In this document: one piece after another, positions 1,434-18,900 of the stretch | Layout: every line of letters begins with the position of its first letter | Numbering within the stretch: the stretch's first letter is position 1 | Origin: an uncultured Bdellovibrionales bacterium | GTDB taxonomy: Bacteria; Bdellovibrionota_C; UBA2361; SZUA-149; CALKYB01 | Reading direction: 5' to 3' | Assembly: GCA_964510575.1 (NCBI GenBank) | Contig: CAZECN010000005.1 | Span: 18,518 to 82,517, forward strand | Length of the DNA stretch: 64,000 nucleotides | Translations under genes and position numbers: made by a program | Notes under the pieces: model-generated | What the model was told of the DNA's origin: nothing | The model's database searches: none | Seen by the model: only the letters and a program-made list of their open reading frames with translations

Positions 1434-1462
1434 TTATTTTTTAAATAATTTTGGAAAAATAG

Positions 1463-1490
1463 AAAAGGGAGATCTTATCTCCCTTTTTTT
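1463..1490 (+). terminator. Rho-independent terminator/attenuator after flp
   Basis: Perfect 7-bp stem GGGAGAT/ATCTCCC with a CTT loop, followed by T7 (aaaagggagatcttatctcccttttttt). Confidence 0.6.
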
Positions 1491-2739: not shown

Positions 2740-2756
2740 GCTTTTCAGGAGAGCTG

Positions 2757-2775
2757 CCGGGTTCGCCCGGTTTTT
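2757..2775 (+). terminator. Possible weak terminator/attenuator after cpaB
   Basis: CCGGG-TTCG-CCCGG hairpin followed by TTTTT. Confidence 0.4.
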
Positions 2776-2821
2776 AAATTTTGGTTTTGTTTATTGGATT
2801 TGATTAAAAGGGACTTTTAAA

Positions 2822-4351
2822 ATGTCAAAAAAAGGCGGCGGAAAGGATCAAGACACTTTAATCGACTTATTTTCCACTAGGTCTAGAGATGGCCAGGAAG
2901 AGGCTCCAGGTATCCCTGAGCAAACTTCCGACTCTAAGGCTAATATGTCACCTGAAGTGGTTGAGAAAGCGAATACTCCTCTTACGACGAAAGCTCCATC
3001 CAAGCGAGCTTCAGGTGGAAGTACTGAGGCTAAAAGTAAAGAGGCGCGGAAGGAAAACAAAAAGGTCAACCTTTCTCCTGTTGCGACAAAGGTGCTGAAA
3101 GAAACCCGTAGAGAACTCGGGAACTCTGGTGAAATTGATGTTGGAGAAGATATCTCTGAGACTCAGATTGCCGCAGCAGTTGATAAGGTTTGCGCTGACC
3201 AAGGGCTTGTCATTGATGATATTGTAAGAGCCGATATCATTGTTCACTTAAAGAGAGACTTGATGGGTTGGGGGGTTTTACAATCCCTGGTGGATAATCC
3301 GGAAGTTACAGATATCCATGTTTATGATTACCAAACAGTAGTTCTTCAACGTGGTAAGAAGAGTGAGACAACTGGTCTTCACTGGCCTTCGCATGAATCC
3401 TACACCACTTTTATTGACCGAGTATTGTTTCGCTTGGGAAAAAGTCTTTCAACTCAGCAGCATACGGTTGACGCGGCTTTTTCTGATGGGAAAAGACTTT
3501 GCGTAATTCATGAATCCGTCTGTGGATCTCGCGGACCATTCATGACAATGCGTGTTCCAAGAGTTCAAGATGCTACTTTGGAAAGTCTAGTTTCCTTTCA
3601 AGTGATGCCTCCTCTGATGGTTAACTACTTGGCAGCGATGGTCAGAAGTTGTGAGCATACTTTCATGGTCGCTGGTGAAACTGGAACTGGTAAGACTACT
3701 TTGATGAGATGTCTGGGGACCCAGTTCGGTCCTGATGAAAGTATCGTTGGGGTAGAGGATACACCTGAACTAAACTACCAGCACCCTTATTATAGAAGCC
3801 TAGTTTCCAGGACTGCCAACAACGAGGGAGTAGGTGAGGTTACTCTTCAGGAGCATATTAAGGCTACTCTTCGTATGTGTCCTACTAGAGTAATTCTGGG
3901 AGAGATGAGAACTCCAGAAGCAGCCGAGTCTTTTTTAGAGGCTGCTCAGACAGGTCACTCAGGAATGTCTACTGTACATGCTAGAAACGCTAGGGAAACT
4001 CTTACCAGACTAGAGAGTTTGCTGGGTCGTGCTCAGAGAGGTGTTTCGATGGATATTATTCGACAGCAGATTGCCTTGGCAGTTGATGTTTGTATTTGGA
4101 ATGTCAGGGAGAAGGTTTCGGGGCGAGTAAGGTGTGGTGAGATTATTGAAGTTGGTCATTTTGTAGAGGGTAGTATTCAGATCAGACCGATGTTTAAGCT
4201 TGTTCAGGAAGGAGAAAATCCAGTTTGGGAGGTTCAATCCTGGTCAAGTAACTACGAAGAAGTTTTAGAGAAAAATGGCATTGTTCTTGGTGATGCGCCA
4301 CAGTTCCTTTCTTTCGGAAATATGGGCGGTGAAGCATCCGGCCGAGGATAG
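2822..4351 (+). CDS. cpaF: Tad pilus secretion ATPase CpaF/TadA (type II/IV secretion NTPase family)
   Basis: Walker A VAGETGTGKTT; conserved VILGEMRTPEAAESFLEAAQTGHSGMSTVHARNARETLTRLESL block typical of TadA/CpaF/VirB11 ATPases. The first ~120 aa are low-complexity and lysine-rich, so the true start may be internal. Confidence 0.9.
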   Translation: MSKKGGGKDQDTLIDLFSTRSRDGQEEAPGIPEQTSDSKANMSPEVVEKANTPLTTKAPSKRASGGSTEAKSKEARKENKKVNLSPVATKVLKETRRELGNSGEIDVGEDISETQIAAAVDKVCADQGLVIDDIVRADIIVHLKRDLMGWGVLQSLVDNPEVTDIHVYDYQTVVLQRGKKSETTGLHWPSHESYTTFIDRVLFRLGKSLSTQQHTVDAAFSDGKRLCVIHESVCGSRGPFMTMRVPRVQDATLESLVSFQVMPPLMVNYLAAMVRSCEHTFMVAGETGTGKTTLMRCLGTQFGPDESIVGVEDTPELNYQHPYYRSLVSRTANNEGVGEVTLQEHIKATLRMCPTRVILGEMRTPEAAESFLEAAQTGHSGMSTVHARNARETLTRLESLLGRAQRGVSMDIIRQQIALAVDVCIWNVREKVSGRVRCGEIIEVGHFVEGSIQIRPMFKLVQEGENPVWEVQSWSSNYEEVLEKNGIVLGDAPQFLSFGNMGGEASGRG

Positions 4352-4379
4352 AGACTGTTTTTAACACAAGGTTGATCGC

Positions 4380-5399
4380 ATGAGTATTGAAACTATCATT
4401 ATTGCCCTGCTGGTTTTACTTTTAATCATAGTAGCTGTGGTAGTTGTAATTTATACCTCCCGTCAGAGAGGTTCAGCTAGTGCTGTCAGTCACGCTAAAG
4501 TTAGCTCTAACCTTAGAGCCTTGGTTACTGCACAAAGGGCGGAAGCGACTAACTTTGGTCAGGGCGTCCCTAGTGGAGGTTCCACTAAAGATAGCCTTGC
4601 TTTAGCAGCAGCTGAAGAAGCGGAAGGGGATGAAAATCAACGAAAAGCTTCCGATAAGGAAAGCTTAGAGAAACGGTTAGTTTATGCTAACTGGCCAATT
4701 ACTCCATTTCAATTTAGAGCTATTCAAGTGGTAGCGACAATTTTGTTGTTTATTGCGGCACGTGCAATTTTTGGTTTTTGGATCCAAGCTCTAGCTATAT
4801 TGCTAACCCCTCTCATTGTTGGAGCAGTGTTAGACTACTTTGTGAAGAAGCGTTTTAAGGCTTTTGATGAAGATTATCCGGTAATGCTTCTTTCCTACGT
4901 TGGTCTTCTTAAAACTGGTATGAGCACAATCGTAGGCCTGGAGGCAGCAGGAAAGGGACTAGAGGAAGGTTCTTTGGTACGTGGTGAGATTGAGCTTTTG
5001 ATTGAACGACTAAGAGTTGGGATGACTGAGGATCAGGCGATTAACGCGTTCGGAGAAGATATTCCTCATCCAGAGTTAGAGCTTTTCGTACAAAGTCTTA
5101 TTTTGAGTAGAAGGGTTGGTGGAACACTTAGCGAAACTCTTGAAAGGTTGGCAAAGCAAGTTAGAAAAAGGCAGCAGTTCCGTTCCCAAGCTGTTGCTGC
5201 GGTTGGTATGGAGCGTTCCTCGCTTTGGGCAATTGCAGGTATCATGTCATTGTTGCTTGGTTATTTGATGTTGTCATCTCCAGAGTTAATTACTCCAGCA
5301 TTTAAGGACGATTTTGGTCGATCTATATTTGAAGCAGGTTTGTTCCTGATTATCGTTGGCATGTATTGGTCACGCCGGGTTACTGACATAAAGGTTTAG
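4380..5399 (+). CDS. tadB: Tad pilus inner-membrane platform protein TadB (T2SS-F domain)
   Basis: N-terminal TM; cytoplasmic T2SSF-like helical domain (VGLLKTGMSTIVGLEAAGKG...RLRVGMTEDQAINAF); C-terminal TMs. Synteny cpaF-tadB-tadC. Confidence 0.75.
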   Translation: MSIETIIIALLVLLLIIVAVVVVIYTSRQRGSASAVSHAKVSSNLRALVTAQRAEATNFGQGVPSGGSTKDSLALAAAEEAEGDENQRKASDKESLEKRLVYANWPITPFQFRAIQVVATILLFIAARAIFGFWIQALAILLTPLIVGAVLDYFVKKRFKAFDEDYPVMLLSYVGLLKTGMSTIVGLEAAGKGLEEGSLVRGEIELLIERLRVGMTEDQAINAFGEDIPHPELELFVQSLILSRRVGGTLSETLERLAKQVRKRQQFRSQAVAAVGMERSSLWAIAGIMSLLLGYLMLSSPELITPAFKDDFGRSIFEAGLFLIIVGMYWSRRVTDIKV

Positions 5400-5400
5400 A

Positions 5401-6324
5401 ATGGACGCTAATCTAATAATATTTCTCGTCATAGGTATTTCAGTTATTGGAGTAGGTGTTTTTGCCTTCGTTTTTATTGGAGGTGATACCAATGCTCAGA
5501 AGGCTGGAATAAGAGATTTGATGGGAGGTATCGATCCAGATGCACTTTCTGCGGTTGGTGAAGATGCTGTTGATCCTTTCGATTTAGAGAGAATAAAGCA
5601 GAATACTGGTAGAGCAAAATCGGTAAAAAAGAAGGAAGACCTGCAGGCTAAGATGTTTAAGGCAGGGATTTTTTCTGCGAAAGAGCGGAAGAGGTTTAAT
5701 ACCATGCGAATGGTATGCCTGGTTCTATTTCCTATTGTAATTCCGCTTCTAATTTGGCTTGTTGTTCCTAAGCTGCAGCTAGTTATTATGGGTCTAGTTA
5801 TGGGTGTATTTGCCGGTCTGGTATACCCAACAGTGAAACTTGATAAGAAAATTGAAGCGAGGCAGGAAGATACTCTTTATTACTTGCCACTAGTAATTGA
5901 GCAAGTGTCGATCGGTGTTAGTAGTGCTCTGGATATTGGACCATGTATCGCTAACATTGTTAGCATGGCTAACGAAAGAGACTCTCACAATGCTGTCACT
6001 GAGATGCTGATCCATGTAGAAAAACTAATGCGTTCTGGACTTAATCTTGAGGATGCGCTTGTTGAAGTTGGAGAAGCCAGTGGTATGGGAGAAGTTAAGC
6101 ATGCCTTTATGTTTCTTGCCCAGTGCGCGAAGCATGGTGGAGAGATATCAAGACAGCTGCAAGAACTTGCTGATTCAGTGATGGTTCAGAGGCAGACCCA
6201 GGTTGAAGCTAAAATTACTGCTTTGCCAGTAAAAGCGACTGGACCTCTAGCGATGGTATTTGCTGGTTTCTTTGCGCTTCTTTTTGCAGGCCTTTTCGTC
6301 CGTCTGATGGGAGCTTTTGGCTAG
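5401..6324 (+). CDS. tadC: Tad pilus inner-membrane platform protein TadC (T2SS-F domain)
   Basis: Polytopic membrane protein with T2SSF-like region (LPLVIEQVSIGVSSALDIGPCIANIV...). Start lies 2 nt after the tadB stop. Confidence 0.75.
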   Translation: MDANLIIFLVIGISVIGVGVFAFVFIGGDTNAQKAGIRDLMGGIDPDALSAVGEDAVDPFDLERIKQNTGRAKSVKKKEDLQAKMFKAGIFSAKERKRFNTMRMVCLVLFPIVIPLLIWLVVPKLQLVIMGLVMGVFAGLVYPTVKLDKKIEARQEDTLYYLPLVIEQVSIGVSSALDIGPCIANIVSMANERDSHNAVTEMLIHVEKLMRSGLNLEDALVEVGEASGMGEVKHAFMFLAQCAKHGGEISRQLQELADSVMVQRQTQVEAKITALPVKATGPLAMVFAGFFALLFAGLFVRLMGAFG

Positions 6325-6475
6325 GAGTAATTAACGCAGTAGGGTAGTTTTATAGAAATTTATCTATCTAATTGTCACGTAGAGCCCTATACTGCTTGGA
6401 GAGTCTTGTTACTAAAGTAATAGGTTGAACTGGGTGCGTAATATATCACCGCTATAAGATTGATTGGATAAATAG

Positions 6476-8680
6476 ATGGGCGGTTTGTCAAAAATATTTT
6501 CACCAGTATTAGCAACCTTTGACAGGCTAGGGCGTTCGGGATTTTTTGTTTCACTGCTTCTTCTTGTAGTAATTTCACTTTTTTTAGTTCCACTTCCACC
6601 AATCCTTCTTGACTTACTCCTAGTTCTCAATATCGTGGTTGCCCTAGTTTTGTTGTTGCGTAGTCTCTATATGAGTGAGCCCTCTGCCCTCTACGCTTTT
6701 CCCACCATACTTTTGATGACAACTCTTTTTAGACTGGCTCTTAATGTCAGTTCTACAAGGCTTATTCTGTTGGGAGGCAAGGACAGTCTTGGAGCCGCAG
6801 GTAGCGTAATTGAATCATTCGGTACTTTTGTTGTTAAGGGAAATTTCGGAGTTGGTGCGATTATCTTTGCCGTGATTGCGGTTGTGAATTTTGTAGTAAT
6901 TGCAAAAGGTTCCGCAAGGGTCGCTGAGGTGTCAGCAAGATTTGCCTTGGATTCATTGCCTGGACGTCAATTAGCAATAGACTCTGATTTAAGAGCTGAG
7001 ACAATTACTCGAGAACAGGCAGAGTTTCGACGAGAAGAACTGCGCAGAGAGTCTCAGTTTTTCGGATCTATGGATGGTGCGATGAAGTTTGTGCAAGGTG
7101 ATGCCATTGCAGGCTTTGTCATAACTTTTATCAACTTGATTGGTGGTGTTGCTATAGGAATTAGTGCCGGAATGGAGTTTCCCGAAGCCATTAATACCTT
7201 TGGTTTGCTGACTATTGGGGATGGTTTAGTTGGCATTATTCCTTCTCTACTAATATCGGTTTGTGCCGGAATCATAGTAACCCATGTGGGAGGATCTGAT
7301 AACCAATCGAGCGGGAGTCAGGTTTTTCAGCAGTTGTTAGGAGACCCGGGAGCCTTAGTAATGGCAGGTTTGGTGCTAATACTACTAGGTATTATTCCAG
7401 GATTTCCTTTTATTCCGTTTTTCGGGGTGGGCTTGTCAGTGCTTCTTTTAGGTTCAATGGCTTGGGGATTTTTAGGAGGAGGTTCTCGCAACTCTCCAGT
7501 GAAAGTTAGATTAAATAATCTTCAAACTCCTACTGCGCAGCTGGGTAGTGGTTTTGGAACTGGATTGCCTGCGATGCCAAGTCAAAGTATGGCCCCTTCG
7601 TTGGAATACTTTAGGCTTAAGCCTCTCGTTGTTGAAATGTCTTCGAATAACTTGAGTGGGGCGGGTAAGTTTTTAGAGGAAGATTTTACTAGGTATTTTA
7701 ACCTGCTTCGTGACCGAGTTTATAAAACTAAAGGACTTCTTGTGCCTGAGGTTTCTTTTTTGGAAGGTTCAACTCTTGGCGAGGGTGATTTTTCTCTTGT
7801 CGTGAGGGAAAGGAATATAAAAAATATTACCTTGAACGAAAACCATCATTTCGTTTCACTCAGTCCCGGACAGTTAGGAACTTTGGGAATTCCGGCTACC
7901 AATCATCAAACTCATCCTTTAACTTGTTCTGGAAGTTCATGGATTGAATCGAGTGATGTTACCGAGGCTACTCTACAGAGATTGGGGGTGGAACTTATCA
8001 ACCCATCTCAGTACCTGGCCTTAGAAGTTATTGGGGCCGCCATTTCTAATATCGATTCTATATTTGGTTTATCTGAAGTGTCTCGACTTGTAGAAATTAG
8101 TAAAGCTACCGATGCGAGATTAGTAGCTGAGGTATTCGATGGAGAGGTCGTGTCTGTAGCTGAATTCTCTGACTTACTTCGAAAACTTGCCCGAGAAAAT
8201 TTGTCGGTGAGAGATATTAAGCAAATTATGGAAGGAGTCTTGGAGTATCACTCCAGAACTCCGGAGACTGAGGATAGACAGGATTGGCTTTCTGGGCTTC
8301 ATGAGCACCTTCGCTTGATCTTGGTAGGCTCTTTGGTTGGTGAGATGAACGGAGAAAGTGACTTTTTTGCTTTTGGTTTATCTGCTGAAGTTGAAGATGA
8401 GTTTCGCTCTGCTGTATCTATGTGGGATTCTCCTCGTTCAAGGTTGCCTTTAGATCCAGATATTTCTAGGGGGATTAAGCGATCTTCCAGTCTACTTTTT
8501 GCTCCAGTTTTAGAGAGAGGGGCTTCGCCAGTGGTAGTACTTTGCCCTGGAGAAATTAGACTTGCCGTTCAAGAATATTTTGTTTCTCAGTATGATTCTT
8601 CAGTTTGGTTTAGAACCGTAGCACATGAAGAACTTGATGAAAGATTTAACGCTCAACTAGTAGGAGTAATTAATGCCTGA
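6476..8680 (+). CDS. sctV: Type III secretion export-gate protein SctV (FlhA/YscV/LcrD, FHIPEP family)
   Basis: 734 aa with 8 N-terminal TMs. Family-signature blocks are present: KDSLGAAGSVIESFGTFVVKGNFGVGAIIFAVIAVVNFVVIAKGSARVAEVSARFALDSLPGRQLAIDSDL and SMDGAMKFVQGDAIAGFVITFINLIGG. A large C-terminal cytoplasmic domain follows. Confidence 0.85.
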   Translation: MGGLSKIFSPVLATFDRLGRSGFFVSLLLLVVISLFLVPLPPILLDLLLVLNIVVALVLLLRSLYMSEPSALYAFPTILLMTTLFRLALNVSSTRLILLGGKDSLGAAGSVIESFGTFVVKGNFGVGAIIFAVIAVVNFVVIAKGSARVAEVSARFALDSLPGRQLAIDSDLRAETITREQAEFRREELRRESQFFGSMDGAMKFVQGDAIAGFVITFINLIGGVAIGISAGMEFPEAINTFGLLTIGDGLVGIIPSLLISVCAGIIVTHVGGSDNQSSGSQVFQQLLGDPGALVMAGLVLILLGIIPGFPFIPFFGVGLSVLLLGSMAWGFLGGGSRNSPVKVRLNNLQTPTAQLGSGFGTGLPAMPSQSMAPSLEYFRLKPLVVEMSSNNLSGAGKFLEEDFTRYFNLLRDRVYKTKGLLVPEVSFLEGSTLGEGDFSLVVRERNIKNITLNENHHFVSLSPGQLGTLGIPATNHQTHPLTCSGSSWIESSDVTEATLQRLGVELINPSQYLALEVIGAAISNIDSIFGLSEVSRLVEISKATDARLVAEVFDGEVVSVAEFSDLLRKLARENLSVRDIKQIMEGVLEYHSRTPETEDRQDWLSGLHEHLRLILVGSLVGEMNGESDFFAFGLSAEVEDEFRSAVSMWDSPRSRLPLDPDISRGIKRSSSLLFAPVLERGASPVVVLCPGEIRLAVQEYFVSQYDSSVWFRTVAHEELDERFNAQLVGVINA

Positions 8681-8734
8681 TTTTAGGGTGTTTTTTTAAA
8701 ATTTAAAAACAAATGAAATGGTAAAATTTCTGAA

Positions 8735-11380
8735 ATGAACATTAGTAAAGGTAAAAAACTCTTTCAAACCCGAGATAATGAGGGTTTTGAGGCTGTGCTT
8801 CCTGAGGGAGCACAAGATTCAGCTATTTTGTGGTCTCAGCGTCAAGCTTTGTCTCCTGATGCCGTGCCAGGTTTTGAAAAAAGAATCTCTTCTTTAGCTA
8901 ACTCTCGCCTACCTATCGCGAAGGTTATTGGTTTTGGGGTTGATAGTAAGAGTGAAGGTTGGGCCTTGACCGAAAAAATTAGCGGCGATGACCTTTTTGG
9001 CTTGAAGGGAAGTGAAAGGGAACGAGCTTTCGTAAGAGCTATACAAATTATTGCCGCTTTACATGAACAGGGTGTCTTGCTCGGTGATATTTGTGATGAT
9101 TCTTTTGTTGTGAATGAGTCGGGAGAGGTTTTTCTTCAAAGCTATTTCGGTGGATTTGATTGTACTCAAGAAAAAACGGCAATGATTCCTCCAAAGGAAA
9201 CATTGTACTACTTAGCACCGGAGCAGCGTACAGGAGGAACACCTTCTTATAGTAATGATGTCTTTTCCTTAGGTGTTCTTGGCTATAAAATGTTTACTGG
9301 TAGCTATCCAGGAAAAGCAAATGGAGTGGAGGGTGCTGATAGCATCACTGCCAAAAGTGTAGCACCATCCAGTGTCGATCCTTCGATTCCTGAGTGGGTT
9401 GATGATGTCATTAGCGATTGTCTGATTTCTGGACAGGCTGGACGGTTCCGTGATGCCTCTAAATGTGTTGAAATTGTAAAGAGGGCTTTGCAGTCGGGTG
9501 AACGTCCTGGAAGTAAAGGGAAGTGGGCTCAGGTTTTGTCTGACAAGATTGCAGATGCTGAGCCCCAGATTGGTGAACCTGACTCCCAGGCTAATCAGGC
9601 GGTTCTTGTGGATCCCCCAAGTGCGGGAGCTGAAAATATATCAGAGAGATCTTCTACAACAACTACTGGCCCTAATAGTTCAGCAATCGCTCTTGGAAAT
9701 GGCCCTGACGAACTTCCTGAAGAAAGATCATTGGTTAAAATGACTGATCCTGAGTTCGCTTTGAAAAGTCGTCGAGTGGATAATGACTTGGTTAGAAAGT
9801 CTAAATCTGAAGTTGGTAGTCGACAGAAGCAAAAAGCAAAAGCTGAAAAAGATTTTTATGAAGACGAGATGCAAGGAAGACAGTCTTCTTTTAGTTTTTT
9901 TGACATTTGGCGCATAGTTTCAACCTTAATATGTCTTTCTATTGTAGCGGCATTGGGATTGTTTACTTATAGGTTTATTTACGGAGATCTCAGTACAACT
10001 AAACTAGGCCAGGGGCTGGAAATTGATGTTGAAGCTGCGCCTCCGGCATTAAAGCCGTCCATTAACGATCTAAAGTCAGCAGCGGTCTCTGTTGAGGTTA
10101 AAAAAGATGCTTTGAAAAGAATTGCCGACTTTGACGATCCAGTATCGCATAACGTTTTAGTTTCTGTAATTTTGGAATCTGAGGATCCAGAATTGAAGAA
10201 ATTGTCTCGCGAGTTAGTTATTGATCGTCTCTCCAGGGGAGGCTTAAGTCGTTCAGCTAATTTGTTGGAGAATTGGTTTGTCAATATGAACAAGAGCAAG
10301 CGAAATGTTGATCAACATTTGGTGAATGTCTTGCGTGTTTTTGATCAAACTATTCCATTAGAAGCAAGGCAGTCTCGCTTGAGAGGTCTTTATGAAGAAA
10401 TGCCAGAGTTTGGCCTTCAATTCGCGGCTGCGCTTGGATTAGATACTGGTGGAGATGAGTCTTTTACTCCTTTACTTAGAGCTTTTGTTAAAGAAAAGTT
10501 TGGTTATTCTGATCTTGAAGATAAGAGTGTTTATGCCATTATTCTGTCCGAAGAATCTCTATTGAATCAGTTTGAAGGGGATCTTAAGAGCTTTCTGAAA
10601 GAGCTATCCGCCAACGATTTGGCTTGGGGAATGCTTTACTTAGCGAGGCAGAATAGCCTCACCCTTAAAGACGTGGCCAAGGAAGTTGGAATTAGAGAGG
10701 TAGTACCAAGATTTCAATCTGAATTTGTGGAGATGCTTTCGAAGTTGGATCATTTTCCTTTAGAGAAAAATGTAAAACTAGCGCTGGTTCGAGGTGCTCG
10801 TGGCGAAACTAAGCTAGATGACGTGAATGTTATTGGTCGATGGTATGATCAAAATGCGGAGCGTGCTCTGTTAGTGATCTGTGCTATTTCGAAAGATAAG
10901 AGGGTCAAAGAGCATGCATTTTCTACTTTAGCTGGACGGACTTTGAGTGCCGAGCCTGCTCGAACTTTAGTTGGTTGGGTTAAGAGCAAATATTGGGCTA
11001 GAAGGTCGCGTTTGGCTACACCAGTAGCTATTTTGTCTCTTCAAGACGTTTCTACTGAGCAAGATTTGCAAACTGCGTTTGATCAGTTGGCCCCGTATTT
11101 TTCTGGAAATACAATTTTTGATACTTTTGATAAGATCGGCGACTCCGCTCTAACTTTACTAGCACTAAGGAGAGTAGGTGCATCATTGCCAAGCCCGGTT
11201 TTAATTGAGCTACTTTCTAACAAGAAAAAAGAGGTTCGAATGGAAGCTGTAAAATCCCTTAGTGGCAGAAACGATTTAGCTGTTCTTCACGCGATCACAA
11301 AAGCGCACAGGAAAGAGAAGGATCCAGATGTTTTAGCCGCTTTTGAGGAACATCACTGGAATACTAGGGATCGATCTTAG
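8735..11380 (+). CDS. Transmembrane Hanks-type Ser/Thr protein kinase-like protein with degenerate catalytic motifs (probable pseudokinase) and C-terminal HEAT/PBS-lyase-like repeats
   Basis: The N-terminal ~260 aa carry the kinase C-lobe signatures LAPEQ (APE motif) and DVFSLGVLGYKMFTG (subdomain IX). The catalytic loop reads LLGDICDDSF instead of HRDLKPxN, and the DFG position reads YFG. A single TM follows (IWRIVSTLICLSIVAALGLFTYRFIY), then ~470 aa with HEAT-like repeats (e.g. KKEVRMEAVKSLSGRNDLAVLHAI). Confidence 0.6.
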   Translation: MNISKGKKLFQTRDNEGFEAVLPEGAQDSAILWSQRQALSPDAVPGFEKRISSLANSRLPIAKVIGFGVDSKSEGWALTEKISGDDLFGLKGSERERAFVRAIQIIAALHEQGVLLGDICDDSFVVNESGEVFLQSYFGGFDCTQEKTAMIPPKETLYYLAPEQRTGGTPSYSNDVFSLGVLGYKMFTGSYPGKANGVEGADSITAKSVAPSSVDPSIPEWVDDVISDCLISGQAGRFRDASKCVEIVKRALQSGERPGSKGKWAQVLSDKIADAEPQIGEPDSQANQAVLVDPPSAGAENISERSSTTTTGPNSSAIALGNGPDELPEERSLVKMTDPEFALKSRRVDNDLVRKSKSEVGSRQKQKAKAEKDFYEDEMQGRQSSFSFFDIWRIVSTLICLSIVAALGLFTYRFIYGDLSTTKLGQGLEIDVEAAPPALKPSINDLKSAAVSVEVKKDALKRIADFDDPVSHNVLVSVILESEDPELKKLSRELVIDRLSRGGLSRSANLLENWFVNMNKSKRNVDQHLVNVLRVFDQTIPLEARQSRLRGLYEEMPEFGLQFAAALGLDTGGDESFTPLLRAFVKEKFGYSDLEDKSVYAIILSEESLLNQFEGDLKSFLKELSANDLAWGMLYLARQNSLTLKDVAKEVGIREVVPRFQSEFVEMLSKLDHFPLEKNVKLALVRGARGETKLDDVNVIGRWYDQNAERALLVICAISKDKRVKEHAFSTLAGRTLSAEPARTLVGWVKSKYWARRSRLATPVAILSLQDVSTEQDLQTAFDQLAPYFSGNTIFDTFDKIGDSALTLLALRRVGASLPSPVLIELLSNKKKEVRMEAVKSLSGRNDLAVLHAITKAHRKEKDPDVLAAFEEHHWNTRDRS

Positions 11381-11401
11381 TTAGCGATTGGAATATTCTT
11401 A

Positions 11402-12793
11402 ATGTTTGCTTTAGAAATTGATTTTCATGATGGCGTTAGTAGTCCGGAAGTTCTGCTAATTAGAAGGCCAATTGCCTTGGTTGGCACTAGTGAGTTTGCC
11501 CATGTTGTAATCGATGGTGCTGCGGCTAATCTCGCTGAACTAAGAATTTTTCGAGAGATAGAGGGAGGATTTTCTTGCCAAGTGAATTCTCGAGATCGGG
11601 GAGCTGAAAATTCTAGAAAAGATGAAAGTTTTGATAAGTTTGCTAGGTTGGAACTTGGCGAAGTGACGACTTCAGTCACTTCCCTAGACTATGATCTTGC
11701 TGTCAGGCCGGAGGAGTCACCGGATAGTGCCGCGCTGAGAATTGCTCAAGAGGCTCTAACCAGCAGAGCACCTAAGCTTCCAGCATTGGCTTTGCTGGGA
11801 GCAAAAACTGTCTTTGTTTCCATTCTGGCGAATACAGGGGTGGTATTGGGCCGTTCAAGGAAGAGTTTAATTCGTTTAGATGCGCCTGATGTCAGTGGTG
11901 AACATGCCAGGATGGGTTATGACAATAATAGCTTTTGGATTGAGGATCTAGGGAGTACCAATGGTACTTTTGTCGAAGGAGAAAGAATTTCTGGTAGAGT
12001 TAATTTTATCCCTGGGCAGAGAGTGAGGCTAGGGGGTGAAACTGTAATTGGAGGAGTCGAGAAAGCGCAGGATGTGGAGCTTTATCGGAATATTGAAGGT
12101 GAGGCCAAGCAGGATGACCCTCGAGGCAAGTATCCTTGTGTTGTATCAAATTCCGAACTTATTAAACCGGCTCGTATACCTCTGGTTTTAGGTAGAACTA
12201 TTTCGATGGGAAGAGATCCTTCTAATGATATCTGGGTTGGAGCATCGCACATTTCAAGGAACCATTGTTATGTAACTTTCGAGGACAGTGGAACAGTTAG
12301 TGTCAAGGACGAAAGTTCCAACGGAACGTTTTTAGGTGAATCCAAACTCAACAAGGGAGAGGCTACTGACATTGTCTCAGATAATTCCATCATCCATTTA
12401 GGCTCAGAACTTTGTATTAAAGTTTGTTTTGATAAAGCTAGTGAAGAAACTTTTCTTGAAGAGCACAAGCAAATTGAGCCAGAGTTTGTTAAGGAATCAG
12501 ATATTAATGCGATGGAATTAACATCACTATCTGCTAAAGCAGTCAGCCCTGCCACAGACGATCCTGAAAACAGGATTGAAGGCGATGGGGTTTTTGCAAA
12601 GTTAGCAAGGAAACGTTCTAGTGAGTCTAATCTTTTGAACCCTGTTTTAGATCCTAACCGAATGCAGTCAAAGCTTAGCACTCAATCTATTCAGAGAAAA
12701 AACTCTTCTCGCCTTATTACTTCCCTAGCTCTTGTCTTTTGCATATTAATATTGTTGGGCTGGATTGCTTATAATCTTTACAGAATAATATAG
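11402..12793 (+). CDS. Multi-FHA-domain protein with C-terminal membrane anchor (SctD/YscD/CdsD-like cytoplasmic part, no periplasmic domain)
   Basis: At least two FHA domains (VVLGRSRKSLIRLD...GEHARMGYDNNSFWIEDLGSTNGTFVEGERI and LVLGRTISMGRDPSNDIWVGASHISRNHCYVTFEDSGTVSVKDESSNGTFLG), plus a degenerate N-terminal FHA-like segment. One TM sits at the extreme C-terminus (LITSLALVFCILILLGWIAYNLY). Confidence 0.7.
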   Translation: MFALEIDFHDGVSSPEVLLIRRPIALVGTSEFAHVVIDGAAANLAELRIFREIEGGFSCQVNSRDRGAENSRKDESFDKFARLELGEVTTSVTSLDYDLAVRPEESPDSAALRIAQEALTSRAPKLPALALLGAKTVFVSILANTGVVLGRSRKSLIRLDAPDVSGEHARMGYDNNSFWIEDLGSTNGTFVEGERISGRVNFIPGQRVRLGGETVIGGVEKAQDVELYRNIEGEAKQDDPRGKYPCVVSNSELIKPARIPLVLGRTISMGRDPSNDIWVGASHISRNHCYVTFEDSGTVSVKDESSNGTFLGESKLNKGEATDIVSDNSIIHLGSELCIKVCFDKASEETFLEEHKQIEPEFVKESDINAMELTSLSAKAVSPATDDPENRIEGDGVFAKLARKRSSESNLLNPVLDPNRMQSKLSTQSIQRKNSSRLITSLALVFCILILLGWIAYNLYRII

Positions 12794-13020
12794 AGCAAGG
12801 CTGCCTTCTTTAAGTTAGATAAAGTGATTTTTAGGCTTTAAACAGCTAAATTTAGCTAGAATTTCCCTGATTCCTAAAGTTTTTTTAATAGAATTTATTT
12901 GATAACTCTTCACTCCCGATGCATCTAAAAGTAGGGGAAAGTTTACTAGCCGGATCGCCTTTAATCCTTTTTGTCTTTTTCGACAATGTAGCGTGATGAT
13001 TTAACCACTTTGGTGTTTTT

Positions 13021-14142
13021 ATGAGTAATGAAGATACAGAGCTGACATTTGTTCGTTGTCCTAGTTGTAGGAGCTTAATACCTGCGATCGCAAAGCGATG
13101 TCGAATGTGTGGTCATGCATTTTCAGAAGGTGAGACTACTCCGACTGAGGAATCGTCAGAAGATTCCTCTAAGTCTAGAATAAGACAGCGTTCTTCAACT
13201 AATTTTATTGGCATAAAGGCACCCGCAGATGAAGCGGAAGTTGAGAAAAAAGAAAATCATCCAATCGAGGATGATAATGAGGGTTTGGATACAAATAACC
13301 CCGCCAGTGTAGAAGTAGATAACGAATGGTCTAGGCCCAATACCTCGAATCAATTTCTTAAGAGTTTTAATAGTTCTGAGAAAGTTCAATCACCGGAGCC
13401 TGTAGAAAAGCAGGAGAGAGCAGAGCAGGTTTCTGCTTCGGCGTCTCCAAATATGGAGAACCAGGAGGATTCCGAGCCCAAGAGAAAGAGAAAGAGAAGA
13501 CGAAGAAAAAGAAAGAAACCTGAGACAGAAACTGTTGAGGTTAAGTCTGAAGTCGAAAGCTCGACCGATGTTCAAGAAACGGAGGTAGAAATGGAAGAAC
13601 CGAGAAATTCAAGAAGGTTTTCTGAGGAGACCTCAGAAAGAGACTATCATAGTGAAGAAAATGACGCGGAGTTACCTGAACAAAATGCGGAACCTGCCTC
13701 AAGACCTCAACGAAGAACCAAAAGAGAGAGAGCGCCAATGAATAGTAATTCTTCTGACCTAGTTGGCTGGTTAGTCAACTTTGAAACGCCCACTGGTCAG
13801 GGAACTGAGCTGCGAGCCGGTAGATTTTTCGTTAGTTCAGAGCAAGTTAAGCCTGATGACCTAGTGCTTAATGATTCAAGTATCTCAGTTCCTCATTGTA
13901 TTTTTAAAGCCACCAAGGAAGATGGATTTAAAGTTCAAGATTTGATGAGTGAAAATGGAACTTGGATAAAGAAGGCCGGAGAAAGTGACTATAAAGAGTT
14001 GGTTGAAGCTCAGCCTGTTGAGCATGGAGACCATCTTAGATTAGGTGATTTCGAGGTATTGGTTTGCTTGATTCCTAAAGATAAAAAGAAACGCTCATCC
14101 AAAGCTTCAACAAGCAAGACAGTAGACAAGGAAGACAAATAA
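13021..14142 (+). CDS. Zinc-ribbon / acidic-basic low-complexity / C-terminal FHA-domain protein
   Basis: N-terminal CPSC...CRMC zinc-ribbon; highly charged disordered middle (KRKRKRRRRKRKK, E-rich); C-terminal FHA-like domain (ELRAGRFFVSSEQV...CIFKATKEDGFKVQDLMSENGTWIK...GDHLRLGDFEV). Confidence 0.6.
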   Translation: MSNEDTELTFVRCPSCRSLIPAIAKRCRMCGHAFSEGETTPTEESSEDSSKSRIRQRSSTNFIGIKAPADEAEVEKKENHPIEDDNEGLDTNNPASVEVDNEWSRPNTSNQFLKSFNSSEKVQSPEPVEKQERAEQVSASASPNMENQEDSEPKRKRKRRRRKRKKPETETVEVKSEVESSTDVQETEVEMEEPRNSRRFSEETSERDYHSEENDAELPEQNAEPASRPQRRTKRERAPMNSNSSDLVGWLVNFETPTGQGTELRAGRFFVSSEQVKPDDLVLNDSSISVPHCIFKATKEDGFKVQDLMSENGTWIKKAGESDYKELVEAQPVEHGDHLRLGDFEVLVCLIPKDKKKRSSKASTSKTVDKEDK

Positions 14143-14414
14143 TAGAGCCGAATAGGCGCTTTATCTAAATTAATTTGTCTAACTTAATTCGCCAAGATCG
14201 GCATATAGCAGCAGTTTGAGCTTAATTATAGTTGGTTGCACCGTTGGTGGTGCTATTGTAGCCTTTCTCTCAAGACTTAGCACATTCGCGCTATTGCTCT
14301 TGTCTTTTTGCATACAATTTCAAGAGAATTACTTGTTTATAGCGCAAGGCAATGGCCAAGAACATGACTTGGTCAACTAGATTTCTAGAGTTGAATATTT
14401 TAGCAAAACCCACC

Positions 14415-15275
14415 ATGAAAGTTTACCTGTTACTTTTTCTAATATTGGCAGCAAGCTCAGGTTGTAAACAGAACACTGAGTTGTTGAGCAGCTTATCTTC
14501 TAGAGAGTCTATCGAGGTACTCGTTCGCTTAGGCGAGATAGGAATTGAAGTTGAAAGAGTTAAAACTGGTGGAGCTAATAGCTCTTATAAAATTCAGGTG
14601 GCCCAAAGTCAGCATGCTCAAGCTTTAAAAGCACTTCATCAACTGGGCTTACCTCGAGCAATAAAAGATAGTTTAGATTCAATTACTAAACCTGCAGGGC
14701 TTATTCCCAATCCAGCTAAGATCTCTTCTTTGAGACTAGATCATGCTCTAGGGTTGGAGGTTGAAAGGTTGCTTGTTGCTTTACCGGGAGTGACAGAAGC
14801 TAAGGTGGTTGTCCGCTCAAACTTGGGTAGCAGAGACCTTGGTGATAAAACAGGAGGATCCTCTGCTTCAGTTGTCCTTCGTTACCTTTCCCGGACGGGG
14901 AAGTTTTCCTTGTCAGATGAAAGAGTAAAAAAGCTGGTAGCTAAAGGTGTACCAGATTTGAATGAAGAGTCGGTTTTGGTTGAAACTAGCCAGGTTTTTT
15001 TGTCTTCTGGAGCAACAGGTATTGGGGTAAGCGGAGGAGGTGAGGCTAAGGCCTTAAAGTCAATTTGGCCCTTCGGTATTGAAATTGCTGATGATGAGTA
15101 TACCAAGGCTGTGTATATGCTAGCTGGCTCAGGTCTTCTTTTCATCTTTTTAGGTTTGATTCTTGGTTATTTGCTATCTTCTACCTCTGGTAGACTGTTG
15201 TCAGGGGGAAATAGTAGAGCGTTGAGTAATGACAGAAAGAACCTTGAAAGAGGTACAGGGAATTTTTTAAGATAG
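14415..15275 (+). CDS. sctJ: T3SS inner-membrane ring lipoprotein SctJ (YscJ/PrgK/EscJ family)
   Basis: Lipoprotein-type signal MKVYLLLFLILAASSGC like YscJ; ring-building motif region (IEVLVRLGEIGIEVERVK...LEVERLLVALPGVTEAKVVVRSN); C-terminal TM (YMLAGSGLLFIFLGLILGYLL). Its ~290 aa size fits SctJ rather than flagellar FliF. The six-frame ORF begins at 14352; start chosen at the M preceding the signal peptide. Confidence 0.7.
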   Translation: MKVYLLLFLILAASSGCKQNTELLSSLSSRESIEVLVRLGEIGIEVERVKTGGANSSYKIQVAQSQHAQALKALHQLGLPRAIKDSLDSITKPAGLIPNPAKISSLRLDHALGLEVERLLVALPGVTEAKVVVRSNLGSRDLGDKTGGSSASVVLRYLSRTGKFSLSDERVKKLVAKGVPDLNEESVLVETSQVFLSSGATGIGVSGGGEAKALKSIWPFGIEIADDEYTKAVYMLAGSGLLFIFLGLILGYLLSSTSGRLLSGGNSRALSNDRKNLERGTGNFLR

Positions 15276-15318
15276 CTAGGCTTAATAGCTATGAGAATTA
15301 TCAAATAGGTTAAAAAAT

Positions 15319-15546
15319 ATGCCAAACTTAAGTAAGTTTAGAGCCTTAACTAACCGTGAGCAGGCGGTGGTTGCGTTGGCTGTTTTGCTAGATGGCCACG
15401 ATTCTGTGGAGATGCTTGTAAGCGATAGGGATCGAGGAGTTGCTCTTTCTAGGGCGGCTGAGGATCTAGTTGTGCTATCGCCAGACTTGAGAATGCCCTT
15501 GATGGGAACTCTTCTGAGAAGGGCACTTGAAGAAATTGACACGTGA
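15319..15546 (+). CDS. Small helical hypothetical protein in T3SS gene string (function unknown)
   Basis: 75-aa ORF on the operon strand with protein-like composition. An antisense ORF (15282-15542) overlaps, so coding status is uncertain. Confidence 0.3.
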   Translation: MPNLSKFRALTNREQAVVALAVLLDGHDSVEMLVSDRDRGVALSRAAEDLVVLSPDLRMPLMGTLLRRALEEIDT

Positions 15547-15664
15547 TCCCTCGCATTGAATATGGTTTGTTTTTCTTTGGTGGCAGCATCTTACCTATAG
15601 GGCAGTTTTCAGTTTGTAGGGTAGGTTTTCTGGAGGTGAACTTTTCAAAGAGGTTTAAAGTATC

Positions 15665-16141
15665 TTGAGATCTAAGCAGAAATTAGAAGTAATACTTCGC
15701 TCTCTTGAGGTTGAAGAGAGAGGCGCTCTGGAAGAAAAACTTAGAATTGAAGAGATTGCAGATGCTCGGGTGAAGGGGTTGTCGGGCTTGGTCGAAGAAA
15801 GAACAGTTTTATATTCTAAGCTCGACGACCTTTCGCAGTCCCAGAAGCGGGCTTTGGTCGGGGGGAGTAAGGCTGTTAGTCCAGCTGAGATACAGGCTTT
15901 TAAGGGTAGAATAAACAAACAAATTGAAGAGTTGAAGGTTAAAATCGACAAAGCCGATGAGCAGTATAAATTAGCCCGAGAACGTCTGGAACTGGCTGAG
16001 AACGAGTTGTTAGAGGCTCGTATAGGCCGGAAAAAGGTCGAGAAACTTTTGGATTCCAAGAAAGCCCGAGAACAGGTAAAACAGGAGATGGTGGAGGAAC
16101 GGCTACTAGAAGAATATAGTAGCGGAAAAGTGCGCAATTAA
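15665..16141 (+). CDS. Coiled-coil T3SS accessory protein, SctO(FliJ)- or SctL(FliH)-like candidate
   Basis: 158 aa, almost entirely charged heptad-like coiled coil (EELKVKIDKADEQYKLARERLELAENELLEARIGRKKVEKLL). Position between sctJ and sctQ mirrors the sctL/sctO positions in injectisome operons. Apparent TTG start preceded by AAAGAGG. Confidence 0.4.
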   Translation: MRSKQKLEVILRSLEVEERGALEEKLRIEEIADARVKGLSGLVEERTVLYSKLDDLSQSQKRALVGGSKAVSPAEIQAFKGRINKQIEELKVKIDKADEQYKLARERLELAENELLEARIGRKKVEKLLDSKKAREQVKQEMVEERLLEEYSSGKVRN

Positions 16142-16155
16142 TCTTAGCTTTTATA

Positions 16156-17214
16156 ATGTCTACAGTCGGAAAATTAGTCGGAAAAGATGCGAGTCCAATA
16201 CCCTGGTCCCCCAAGGATTTGTTGCCGACTCTATCCTCTAATCAAATTCGATTTAGCAGGGGGTTTTTGCGGAGTGATGTTAGTGTATGGCTTGCGGACT
16301 TTGTAAAGTCTTGGCAATTGCTTCTACATTCTCTTGGCTTAAAAGTTGAACTAAGTTCAGTCAATAATCAATTTAATTTTCCTGAATCTCTGAGTCGAGT
16401 GATACCCATTGAATTGGATGACGAGACTGCAGTCATTGGAATGGATGATGAAAGTCAGGAGATAGTTTCATCTGTAGTGGCGAAAGGATCTGAGTCAACC
16501 GCTGTTGATGTTATTGTCGAATACTTTGAACGTCGAATGCTTAGTTGTGTTAGTCAGCATTGGTCTGGTCCGATGCCTCTTAAAGCTAGGTATCTAGCAG
16601 ATAGTGAATCTACAGCGGTGGATGTTGTTGGTACCATTTGCTTTGTTTTTACCGCAGGAGGTAAAGACTTTAAACTGTGGCTTGGTTTAGGGCCAAGGGC
16701 TGTTGAGAGAATAGACGGCCTATGGAGAAAACAACTTTTTGAAGAAAAAAGTAATTTGCCCGGTCCGAAACTGCCTCAATTATCTACTGTGGATATAGAC
16801 TTAGTTGAGTTGCTTGTTCCCCCTGCTCTTTTAATTGACTACATGAGGAGTGGTACCGTGGTGGAGTTAGACCTTCCGACAAGCAATAAGGTTAGAGTGA
16901 ACCTGAACGGAAATTTCTGGGCTTATGGGCAGCTGGGACAGTTTGAAGGTAATTTCGCGGTTACGCTTGAGGACTTTGAGGCTAAAGAAAAGTCAGAAAA
17001 CGATAGCTCTAGCACAACCAAAGTTAGTGTTCAGCTTGCGGTTGAAGAAATAGATCGTGAGGCTGTTTTAGAGTTCGGCCAGGAGCAGTCTATTCTTTCT
17101 ACTCAAGTTGCAGTTAACGATAGAGCCAGTCTCATTATTAGTGGAGAAAGAGTTGCCTCTGCTATAATTGGCGAGTTGGATGGTAAGTTTGCTTTGACTG
17201 TGTTGCCGAAATGA
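16156..17214 (+). CDS. sctQ: T3SS cytoplasmic sorting platform/C-ring protein SctQ (FliN/YscQ SpoA domain)
   Basis: C-terminal SpoA domain: GTVVELDLPTSNKVRVNLNGNFWAYGQLGQFEGNFAVTLEDF, and a second SpoA-like segment DRASLIISGERVASAIIGELDGKFALTV. 352 aa. Stop overlaps the sctR start (ATGA). Confidence 0.7.
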   Translation: MSTVGKLVGKDASPIPWSPKDLLPTLSSNQIRFSRGFLRSDVSVWLADFVKSWQLLLHSLGLKVELSSVNNQFNFPESLSRVIPIELDDETAVIGMDDESQEIVSSVVAKGSESTAVDVIVEYFERRMLSCVSQHWSGPMPLKARYLADSESTAVDVVGTICFVFTAGGKDFKLWLGLGPRAVERIDGLWRKQLFEEKSNLPGPKLPQLSTVDIDLVELLVPPALLIDYMRSGTVVELDLPTSNKVRVNLNGNFWAYGQLGQFEGNFAVTLEDFEAKEKSENDSSSTTKVSVQLAVEEIDREAVLEFGQEQSILSTQVAVNDRASLIISGERVASAIIGELDGKFALTVLPK

Positions 17215-17888
17215 CAGTGTCTGAAATAATTGTTGGACTAGGGTATGATTTTCTTCCCTTAGTAAGCATAGGTTTCTTTGTTATTCTATTTAGCAGTTAC
17301 GTCAAAATATCTACAGTTCTATCTATTTTAAGATCAGGACTAGGGGCTTTTAGTATACCGTCTGCCATGGTTACTGGTTCTCTCGCTTTGGTCTTGAGCT
17401 TTTTTGTTATGTATCCGTACATTAATGAGGCTGCTTCTTCTATAGACAGGGTGGTAAGTTCCTCTGGATCGGTTAATTCTAGTGTTAGGGTTAAGGCTCT
17501 AGGAGAAGCTGGTAAGTCTTGGAAGAAGTTTTTGTTGAAGCATAGTGATCCGGAAGTGATTAGTGAACTTGCTACAATCGCCAATAAGATTGACGAATCG
17601 GCTGAGACTAAAGTAGCCGATAGCCTTGATACTAAGGAGCTTAGAGATTGGAGAATTTTGGCGCCTGCCTTTTATCTCTCTGAGTTAAGAGAGGCTTTCG
17701 CAATCGGATTGAGTCTCTTTTTGCCTTTTTTAGTTGTAGATCTATGCGTAGCTCATATTTTGGTGGCTTTAGGAGTGAATAAGGTTGATCCTTCTATGGT
17801 CTCTTTGCCCCTAAAACTCTTGCTTTTTGTTATGTTAGACGGATGGGCGTTGATCGCAGGAAATCTTCTATCGAGTTATGGAGGTTGA
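17211..17888 (+). CDS. sctR: T3SS export apparatus protein SctR (FliP family)
   Basis: FliP/SctR-like TM topology and conserved blocks (SIPSAMVTGSLALVLSFFVMYPY...AFAIGLSLFLPFLVVDLCVAHILVALGV...LPLKLLLFVMLDGWALIAGNLLSSY). Confidence 0.85.
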   Translation: MTVSEIIVGLGYDFLPLVSIGFFVILFSSYVKISTVLSILRSGLGAFSIPSAMVTGSLALVLSFFVMYPYINEAASSIDRVVSSSGSVNSSVRVKALGEAGKSWKKFLLKHSDPEVISELATIANKIDESAETKVADSLDTKELRDWRILAPAFYLSELREAFAIGLSLFLPFLVVDLCVAHILVALGVNKVDPSMVSLPLKLLLFVMLDGWALIAGNLLSSYGG

Positions 17889-18158: not shown

Positions 18159-18167
18159 GTCTACAAA

Positions 18168-18887: not shown

Positions 18888-18900
18888 GAGCTCCCGGTAA

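Follow-up and report, generated by a model that had tools for sequence, protein, structure and literature searches.

In secretion systems of type VIIb (T7SSb), the pseudokinase EssB binds the FHA domains of EssC, and these domains have no phosphate-binding residues (PMC10765036). Here we describe a stretch of 64,000 nucleotides from contig CAZECN010000005.1 of an uncultured bacterium (the whole stretch is called the window below), in which the open reading frame (ORF) 8735-11380, the longest ORF on either strand of this interval, codes for a putative pseudokinase of another secretion machine. The protein has a kinase fold whose catalytic residues are lost family-wide, a single transmembrane helix and a helical solenoid. 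Its gene stands in a conserved order with Tad and type III secretion system (T3SS)-like genes, in a cluster with an intact Ser/Thr kinase (STK), a PP2C phosphatase and FHA proteins. We infer that a pseudokinase scaffold of a secretion system is here joined to a phosphothreonine/FHA switch; the protein belongs to a sizeable, unnamed family, and the mechanism given below is a proposal.

In the EssB/YukC accounts (PMC10765036; PMC3694306), the protein carries a cytoplasmic pseudokinase domain at its N-terminus, a single transmembrane segment and an extracytoplasmic helical domain, is a component of the secretion machine and, in the case of EssB, contacts its partner via FHA domains. The ORF 8735-11380 product has the same layout, with the topology predicted in our case. 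On the other hand, it had no match to the Pfam YukC model even at E<=1 and was much nearer to PknB, PknA and Stk1. The host is Gram-negative, the machine is of the Tad/T3SS-like type, and neither an EssC/FtsK-type ATPase nor a WXG100 gene was found in the window. Also unlike T7SSb, the FHA domains here keep the phosphothreonine-binding residues, and genes for an active STK and for a PP2C come with the cluster. Still, EssB-EssC appears to be the closest analogue in architecture and logic, and a better one than chlamydial Pkn5. To our knowledge, membrane pseudokinases that organise bacterial secretion machines have so far been known essentially from EssB of the Gram-positive T7SSb. The protein described here, if our proposal is right, would be a second, independently evolved secretion pseudokinase, working in a Gram-negative bacterium at a T3SS-type gate with the phosphothreonine machinery still around.

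With respect to signalling logic, the closest system seems to be PpkA-PppA-Fha1 of the type VI secretion system (T6SS). In both cases a Hanks kinase, a PP2C and an FHA protein are encoded within the secretion cluster, and post-translational control of assembly or firing is presumed. A preliminary description of the window, made from the nucleotide sequence alone, had likened the ORF to PpkA-Fha and to Pkn5. The first of these parallels held for the joint presence of STK, PP2C and canonical FHA domains; it did not hold for the ORF itself, which is not the kinase of the set. The active kinase is a separate, sensor-less and tail-anchored protein, and the large, predicted periplasmic domain belongs to the kinase that is almost certainly dead. 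The T6SS core genes are missing, and the scanned ORFs of the window had no match to T6SS families apart from a TagH-type FHA similarity far under the cut-off. A parallel to T6SS phosphorylation was also drawn by Seef et al. for the FHA-rich Kil cluster (PMC8460266).

The gene for Pkn5, which is predicted to be a pseudokinase, lies in a T3SS operon, and the protein was reported as a secreted T3SS substrate found at the inclusion membrane (PMC5177608). This second parallel proved to be a poor one: a secreted effector of this kind (PMC5177608), compared here by its description only, lacks the architecture of our protein, a predicted bitopic inner-membrane protein with a solenoid. Among chlamydial proteins, a more relevant precedent appears to be the phosphorylation by PknD of CdsD, an FHA-bearing SctD homologue (PMC5177608; PMC2765968).

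At the level of the whole cluster, the nearest described system appears to be Kil + T3SS* of Myxococcus xanthus, where the Tad-like, FHA-rich Kil machine works with a T3SS* basal body that has no secretin, needle or translocon (PMC8460266; PMC12075869; PMC10849154). The gene content of the window matches this system in outline. Tad genes, SctV/J/O/Q/R/S/T/U and FHA proteins are present, and no secretin, needle, translocon, SctN, SctL or prepilin peptidase was found among the Pfam-scanned ORFs of the window and of 8 kb upstream of it (72 kb). Judged by this content, the cluster is a Tad and needleless-T3SS-like hybrid and not a classical injectisome. The differences are that the M. xanthus genes occupy separate loci, compared to one co-oriented cluster here, that SctN is present there, that no FHA domain of the kind seen on KilF was found on CpaF, and that the organism here is an uncultured bacterium with 42% G+C content (one relative has a record labelled 'Pseudomonadota bacterium'). 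A kinase or pseudokinase component is not mentioned in the M. xanthus reports, which leave open how Kil and T3SS* are coordinated (PMC8460266; PMC12075869). According to reviews, the co-occurrence of Kil and T3SS* is restricted to Cystobacterineae (PMC10849154; PMC12428579); therefore, the fused Tad + needleless-T3SS cluster looks undescribed. Literature searches joining Tad, FlhA and pseudokinase, or SctV and CpaF, gave nothing relevant.

Kinase fold and catalytic site across the family

The Pfam Pkinase model scored 30.7 bits on the whole protein (gathering score 31.7), with a match limited to profile positions 99-251. On residues 1-262 alone the score was 33.8 bits, above the 31.7 cut-off, as is the case for a Hanks-type fold. 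A phmmer search against PDB sequences found M. tuberculosis PknA at 1e-9, and a ten-member family profile aligned with PknB along the full length of the domain (E=1e-21; positions 11-267 versus PknB 3-272). The AlphaFold2 model had the elements in the order beta1-beta3, alphaC, beta4-5, alphaE, a short catalytic/activation segment and alphaF-I. With this model, Foldseek retrieved Stk1, PknA and PknB at E~3e-8, over about 275 columns and with target template modelling scores of 0.60-0.69. Therefore, the entire bilobal fold is present, beyond the C-lobe seen by Pfam.

We read the substitutions in the active site from alignments to PknA, PknB and the active kinase of the same cluster, and verified their coordinates (Table 1). 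The preliminary description had pointed to the strings LLGDICDDSF, YFG, APE and DVFSLGV, all of which are present at verified coordinates, and had read HRD...N and the DFG Asp as apparently replaced, with APE and subdomain IX retained. The losses of the Asn and of the DFG Asp were confirmed, as was the retention of the latter two motifs in the ORF and its relatives. In HRD, however, only the His and the Arg are lost and the Asp is kept (D118). Further losses, not listed before, concern the beta3 Lys, the alphaC Glu and the GxGxxG loop. In the ORF product we thus found none of the hallmarks of catalytic competence: a Lys/Glu salt bridge with a Gly loop, HRDxKxxN and the DFG Asp. Because the Lys, Glu, Gly loop, Asn and DFG Asp are lost, phosphate transfer would be impossible and, as far as can be judged from these residues, the product is almost certainly catalytically dead. 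The activation loop, flexible in the model with a predicted local distance difference test score (pLDDT) <50 at residues 142-150, contains two threonines in register with those of PknB, T148 (Table 1) and T156, which aligns with PknB T179.

An exhaustive profile search (hidden Markov models) of 1.84 billion cluster representatives produced 286 representatives that matched the family profile at E<=1e-30; chance is therefore excluded. At least 134 of the 286 were full length (700-900 amino acids, aa), and in these the kinase-like domain and the C-terminal domain each gave a match of their own. A word-index search had given 5 relatives only, and the idea of an extremely rare family was rejected after the exhaustive search. 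The residue counts in Table 1 come from 134 N-terminal domains of at most 50% mutual identity, aligned with a genuine kinase. We observed that the catalytic losses recur throughout: neither the beta3 Lys, nor the catalytic Asn, nor the DFG Asp was present in a single member, and G117 and F124 were nearly invariant. Such a pattern indicates, at the level of sequence, an ancient pseudokinase with a non-catalytic fold under purifying selection, and disfavours recent gene decay. The earlier suggestion that the protein is a pseudokinase or scaffold, and not an active kinase, was strengthened by this conservation of the degenerate site across the 134 relatives.

In a 26-member subfamily, R13, W33 and R36 were invariant, and T148 and T156 were conserved at >=90%, with I or L as the +3 residue. 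In the subfamily with FHA neighbours, the activation-loop motif T-A-M-[IL]-P-P hardly varied.

Nearly all members that were found derive from metagenomes. No family-specific model was found in Pfam or NCBIfam, and the best NCBIfam matches, to generic kinase equivalogs, reached about 10% of the respective cut-offs. In public annotation the members are named 'hypothetical protein' or 'serine/threonine protein kinase'. The family is widespread and unnamed, with at least 134 full-length clusters at 50% identity, and automatic annotation would miscount its members as active kinases.

A recent STK atlas describes seven bacterial pseudokinase families without the VAIK Lys (bioRxiv 10.1101/2025.01.12.632604). 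As described there, the DLHK family is similar to ours in that the HRD Asp is kept, the DFG Asp and the HRDxxxxN Asn are lost, and several C-terminal domains occur; the comparison was made by description only. The GLW family is said in the same atlas to have no HRD Asp, which does not fit the D118 kept here. The atlas is stated to draw on RefSeq and UniProt, compared to the mostly metagenomic members of the present family.

Membrane architecture and gene order

The kinase-fold domain is followed by a linker whose length differs among relatives, by the transmembrane helix and by the C-terminal solenoid (Table 1). A single strong transmembrane segment is the rule across the family. Extra hydrophobic segments appeared in a third of the relatives; we rejected them as split calls of the transmembrane helix or as weak helices within globular domains. 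No signal peptide was detected in the pseudokinase. An N-in, C-out topology with a periplasmic solenoid is predicted because the N-terminal side of the helix is richer in basic residues. The mean number of K+R was 4.15 on the N-side versus 2.07 on the C-side, with N>C in 104/134 relatives and N<C in 11/134.

The C-terminal domain had been described earlier as a HEAT-repeat domain, and this stood up to the analysis. The HEAT_2 score was 31.5 bits for the full-length protein and rose to 36.3 bits for the C-terminal 450 aa alone (cut-off 27.7). The C-terminal ~450 aa, modelled separately, formed a continuous, all-helical alpha-solenoid with confident scores (pLDDT 89, predicted template modelling score 0.80). 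As a fold class, then, HEAT-repeat is correct according to the model, and no specific known relative was identified.

To compare gene order, we examined eleven further loci with family members at 24-73% identity to the window protein. A metagenome scan keyed on the subdomain-IX motif of a 26-sequence alignment gave L014-L017 as useful loci and otherwise returned mostly ordinary kinases. An SctV-like gene was directly upstream of the pseudokinase in all 12 loci where that side is visible, and TadB and TadC stood ahead of SctV wherever visible. On the downstream side two types of loci were seen. In type A (8 loci: the window, L001, L003, L004, L007, L094, L095 and L014) the next gene codes for a multi-FHA protein, followed, where the contig continues, by Zn-ribbon-FHA, SctJ, SctO, SctQ and SctR/S. 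In type B (L011, L013 and L096) the next gene codes for a lipoprotein of thioredoxin fold that has a lipobox and a CxxS motif, and neither an FHA gene nor a T3SS gene other than SctV was adjacent. The preliminary description had embedded the ORF between sctV and FHA genes. This was confirmed for the window; across loci, SctV and Tad genes are the invariant neighbours (12/12), compared to 8/11 for the multi-FHA gene.

The start of the lipoprotein gene overlaps the stop codon of the pseudokinase gene in two of the three type-B loci. A lipoprotein as the next gene in three loci would be periplasmic and was therefore counted in favour of the N-in, C-out topology. It suggests that the thioredoxin-fold lipoprotein is a periplasmic partner of the solenoid domain.

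The canonical kinase was found just outside the window. Locus L009 is the same contig (3 mismatches in 12,739 nt; window position equals L009 position minus 8194) and extends upstream of window position 1. Directly before TadZ it contains genes for a PP2C phosphatase (65.9 bits), a weak-FHA protein (358 aa, FHA 20 bits) and an STK of 527 aa (Pkinase 199 bits). The STK has the motifs GTGSMG, VAMK, the alphaC Glu, HRDLKPEN, DFG, SPE, the subdomain IX Asp and the XI Arg; it ends in a C-terminal transmembrane anchor with about 25 residues beyond it and has no sensor domain. The earlier expectation that the FHA proteins would need a kinase other than ORF 8735-11380 was thus borne out, with an STK and a PP2C at hand. 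The cluster presents a contrast between an active, sensor-less kinase and a dead one with a large predicted extracytoplasmic domain. An origin of the pseudokinase as a recent paralogue of this STK was considered and rejected: the two share only 25% identity (C-lobe), and the STK is no nearer than PknA. An active STK ahead of TadZ was present in 3/3 loci with the region visible (L009, L007 and L011). From the comparison of loci, therefore, the conserved core consists of the STK, the Tad genes, SctV and the pseudokinase, with FHA and other T3SS-like genes as a frequent extension.

The tail-anchored multi-FHA protein downstream of the pseudokinase starts with a degenerate FHA/SctD-like region, continues with two canonical FHA domains (LGRS...VSGEHA...STNGT and MGRD...ISRNHC...SSNGT) and ends in a C-terminal transmembrane segment with nothing beyond. 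When its second FHA domain is aligned with ArnA, Rv1827/GarA and Mb1858, the residues that bind phosphothreonine are in register. The C-terminal FHA domain of the Zn-ribbon-FHA protein has the motif AGR...SVPH...SENGT. Since they retain the GR / SxxH / NG phosphothreonine-binding residues, the FHA domains beside the pseudokinase seem able to read phosphothreonine.

Ring-building domains for the periplasm are missing from the multi-FHA protein, which resembles an SctD cut to its cytoplasmic half. The only large periplasmic domain predicted in the cluster is that of the pseudokinase. The middle part of the Zn-ribbon-FHA protein is an extremely charged low-complexity region, which includes KRKRKRRRRKRKK.

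Table 1. Features of ORF 8735-11380 and of the genes around it. Coordinates are window positions unless a locus is named; counts are out of 134 aligned relatives; res, residues.
Feature	Coordinates	Strand	Evidence, conservation or remark
Whole ORF, bitopic pseudokinase, 881 aa	8735-11380	+	kinase-like domain, disordered linker, transmembrane helix, helical-repeat domain
Hanks-type kinase-fold domain, predicted cytoplasmic, res 1-262	8735-9520	+	Pfam, phmmer, Foldseek, profile alignment
Gly-rich loop replaced by T12-R13-D-N-E-G-F-E-A			GxGxxG absent; family reads T-R-x-x-E-x-[FY]-x-A
beta3 Lys replaced by W33	8831-8833	+	Trp 114/134; Lys 0/134
alphaC Glu replaced by R50	8882-8884	+	Arg 122/134
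H110			133/134
HRD replaced by L116-G117-D118	9080-9088	+	Asp kept, His and Arg lost; Asp 126/134
Catalytic-loop Lys replaced by C120, Asn by S123	9092-9103	+	loop L-G-D118-I-C-D-D-S123; Ser 121/134, Thr 12/134, Asn 0/134
DFG replaced by Y137-F138-G139 (YFG)	9143-9151	+	Asp 0/134 (positions 134-139); family pattern [VLI][ML]G; Gly 127/134
Activation-loop T148-A-M-I	9176-9187	+	aligns with PknB T171
APE, res 161-163, kept	9215-9223	+	Pro 131/134; Glu 127/134
Subdomain IX Asp D175, kept	9257-9259	+	134/134
Subdomain XI Arg R237, kept	9443-9445	+	133/134
Low-complexity Ser/Thr-rich juxtamembrane linker, about res 255-387	9521-9898	+	predicted disordered (pLDDT <50)
Single transmembrane helix FDIWRIVSTLICLSIVAALGLFTYRFIY, res about 389-416	9899-9982	+	hydrophobicity; coordinates verified
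Predicted periplasmic all-alpha solenoid, res 432-877	10028-11365	+	structure model; about 28 helices
Pfam HEAT_2 match, res 810-870 only	11162-11344	+
TadZ/CpaE, partial	1-935	+
Flp pilin	1248-1433	+	G/ASMLEY processing motif
CpaB/RcpC	1807-2739	+
CpaF ATPase	2822-4351	+
TadB	4380-5399	+
TadC	5401-6324	+
SctV/FlhA-family (FHIPEP) export gate	6476-8680	+	FHIPEP 553 bits; directly upstream of the pseudokinase
Tail-anchored multi-FHA protein, 463 aa	11402-12793	+	FHA 109 bits; YscD cytoplasmic-domain model 51.7 bits, above cut-off
Zn-ribbon-FHA protein, 373 aa	13021-14142	+	zinc-ribbon, highly charged linker, C-terminal canonical FHA
SctJ	14352-15275	+
FliJ/SctO-like	15665-16141	+
SctQ	16156-17214	+
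SctR	17211-17888	+
SctS	17889-18158	+
Putative SctT, polytopic	18168-18887	+	position, transmembrane pattern, orthology only
SctU/FlhB homologue, short, 248 aa	18901-19647	+	profile positions 2-235 of 335
PP2C, weak-FHA protein and canonical STK	L009 3796-7527		directly before TadZ, 0.7-4.4 kb upstream of window position 1
Thioredoxin-fold lipoprotein	L011 12382-12843		type-B locus
Thioredoxin-fold lipoprotein	L013 10392-10949		type-B locus
Thioredoxin-fold lipoprotein	L096 12790-13296		type-B locus

Proposed role and alternatives

We propose that the non-catalytic, bitopic pseudokinase is an accessory receptor or scaffold of a Tad + needleless-T3SS-like envelope machine that includes an STK/PP2C/FHA switch, and we give this proposal about an even chance of being right. 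The kinase-fold domain would transfer no phosphate and would keep the substrate-side C-lobe and the activation loop with T148-A-M-[I/L]. The membrane-anchored, sensor-less STK of the cluster would phosphorylate the loop at T148 in trans, and the PP2C of the cluster would take the phosphate off. The phosphorylated loop would then recruit the canonical FHA domains of the tail-anchored multi-FHA (SctD-like) and Zn-ribbon-FHA proteins, and this recruitment would couple the signal to the assembly or gating of the adjoining SctV export gate. The signal, e.g. pilus or envelope status, would be sensed by the periplasmic alpha-solenoid. Many bacterial FHA domains favour a hydrophobic residue at pT+3. 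In addition, Villarino et al. reportedly found in 2005 that PknB recruits the FHA domain of GarA via its phosphorylated activation loop. We propose trans-phosphorylation and FHA recruitment because the T148 loop is kept, its +3 residue is I or L, and PknB-GarA offers a precedent. The proposed wiring, in which the STK acts via pT148 of the pseudokinase and via the FHA proteins on SctV, is concrete and testable.

Several observations weigh against this proposal. The confidence of the AlphaFold2 model was moderate in the kinase domain (pLDDT about 60-80, from a 5-sequence alignment). In the wider family, T148 was present in 69/134 members and T156 in 74/134. The type-B loci L011 and L096 keep T148 and T156 with no adjacent FHA gene, and we saw no co-variation between these threonines and FHA genes. 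SctV, not FHA, is the invariant neighbour, and therefore the export gate itself may be the primary partner. HEAT-like solenoids are commoner on the cytoplasmic side, and our topology is no more than a prediction. Finally, the conservation of D118, G117, S123, F124, R13, R36 and R50 could reflect a ligand-binding or unusual catalytic pocket.

Some of these observations would be natural for a structural subunit that works independently of phosphorylation. Such a subunit would bind constitutively, in the manner of EssB-EssC, to the cytoplasmic ring of SctV and/or to the degenerate N-terminal FHA/SctD-like domain; its solenoid would replace the missing periplasmic ring of SctD or would bridge to the Tad platform, and the STK, PP2C and FHA proteins would regulate something else. 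The adjacency of SctV (12/12, versus 8/11 for FHA), the EssB-EssC precedent (PMC10765036), the T148 that is not universal in the family, and the division of domains between a multi-FHA protein with no periplasmic part and a pseudokinase with a roughly 450-aa one all point this way. However, FHA2, FHA3 and the Zn-ribbon FHA keep the phosphothreonine-binding residues, unlike EssC (PMC10765036), the STK and PP2C are conserved in the same cluster, and T-A-M-[IL]-P-P is nearly invariant in the FHA-associated subfamily. We consider a structural subunit a serious alternative, though a rather unlikely one. Less likely still is a receptor partner that would activate the sensor-less STK allosterically via a HER3/STRAD-like heterodimer of kinase domains, with the FHA proteins as substrates or readers of the STK. 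The STK has just a C-terminal anchor and about 25 extracytoplasmic residues, so to speak leaving the only large extracytoplasmic domain to the pseudokinase, and the two genes occur together in each of the 3 loci that show the region upstream of TadZ; still, 25% identity over the C-lobe is not that of recent paralogues, and seven genes lie between the two genes.

The conserved pocket residues raise the question of an atypical enzyme or ligand-binding site, of the WNK/SelO/SidJ type, formed by D118, R13, R36, R50, D70 and S123 and acting on a nucleotide or second messenger, or in an unusual transfer. The counts for the HRD Asp (126/134), R50 (122/134) and S123 (121/134), the near invariance of F124 and G117, and the invariance of R13, W33 and R36 in the 26-member subfamily would fit such a site. 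On the other hand, the Gly loop, beta3 Lys, alphaC Glu, catalytic Asn and DFG Asp are lost together, and we know of no bacterial Hanks kinase that works with all five missing. A Trp at the beta3 position would more probably fill the adenine pocket than bind a nucleotide. We therefore regard an atypical pocket as quite improbable. A secreted substrate or effector like Pkn5 is hardly credible, even though the pseudokinase is encoded within a T3SS-like cluster as Pkn5 is (PMC5177608): the strong single transmembrane segment and the roughly 450-aa C-terminal domain are conserved family-wide, the system has no needle, translocon or secretin, and the family occurs also where SctV is the sole adjacent T3SS gene.

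Beyond the receptor or scaffold proposed above, a broader idea may be put forward, tentatively and with more doubt than confidence. The locus could encode an undescribed single-locus hybrid nanomachine of uncultured Pseudomonadota-like bacteria outside the myxobacteria, made of a Tad platform, a SctV-centred needleless T3SS-like export apparatus and the STK/PP2C/FHA switch, with the pseudokinase as the periplasm-facing receptor. If this were true, it would follow from the minimal conserved core of Tad, SctV, pseudokinase and STK that a type-IV-filament machine can take up a gate of the SctV type, with a dead kinase doing the gating.

Further genes of the window

The cluster genes (window positions 1-19647) are co-oriented and closely spaced and form a single Tad + T3SS-like locus. 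Tad and T3SS-like genes were co-oriented in one cluster also in L003, L004, L007, L011, L013, L016, L094 and L096, with relatives down to about 25-45% identity. Between the window and its L003/L004 orthologues, the identity was 82% for TadZ, 70% for CpaF, about 44-45% for SctV and 42-44% for multi-FHA, compared to 30-42% for SctJ, SctO and SctQ and about 30% for the pseudokinase. Either evolution is far more rapid in the T3SS-like half than in the Tad half, or we see a mosaic cluster.

The SctV-like protein scored 511 bits with hrcV and 482 bits with FlhA, both under the equivalog cut-offs. The short SctU lacks the cytoplasmic C-terminal domain of NPTH autocleavage and substrate switching; its L007 orthologue is also short (262 aa). 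The next ORF (19759-20265, 168 aa) had no family match and is followed by a small TPR protein. Directly downstream of the cluster there are two divergent sigma-70-family ORFs, 21455-22333 (-) and 22745-23524 (+), one with a region 2 match only and the other with regions 2 and 4; they may be cluster-specific regulators. Farther upstream, outside the window, a large hybrid histidine kinase/response regulator is encoded at L009 1-3044.

The remaining part of the window is housekeeping, with RNase PH, BipA, MetH and lipopolysaccharide (LPS)-core genes. The sole other kinase-fold ORF in the window is a WaaP/Kdo-type LPS kinase at 58395-59186 (+), located within the LPS-core heptosyltransferase cluster and not a Hanks-type signalling kinase. 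The ORF 51660-55613 (-), 1317 aa in length, had only faint NHL and Sortilin-Vps10 (beta-propeller) matches. A single tRNA gene at 27948-28021 (+) was the only Rfam match in the window.

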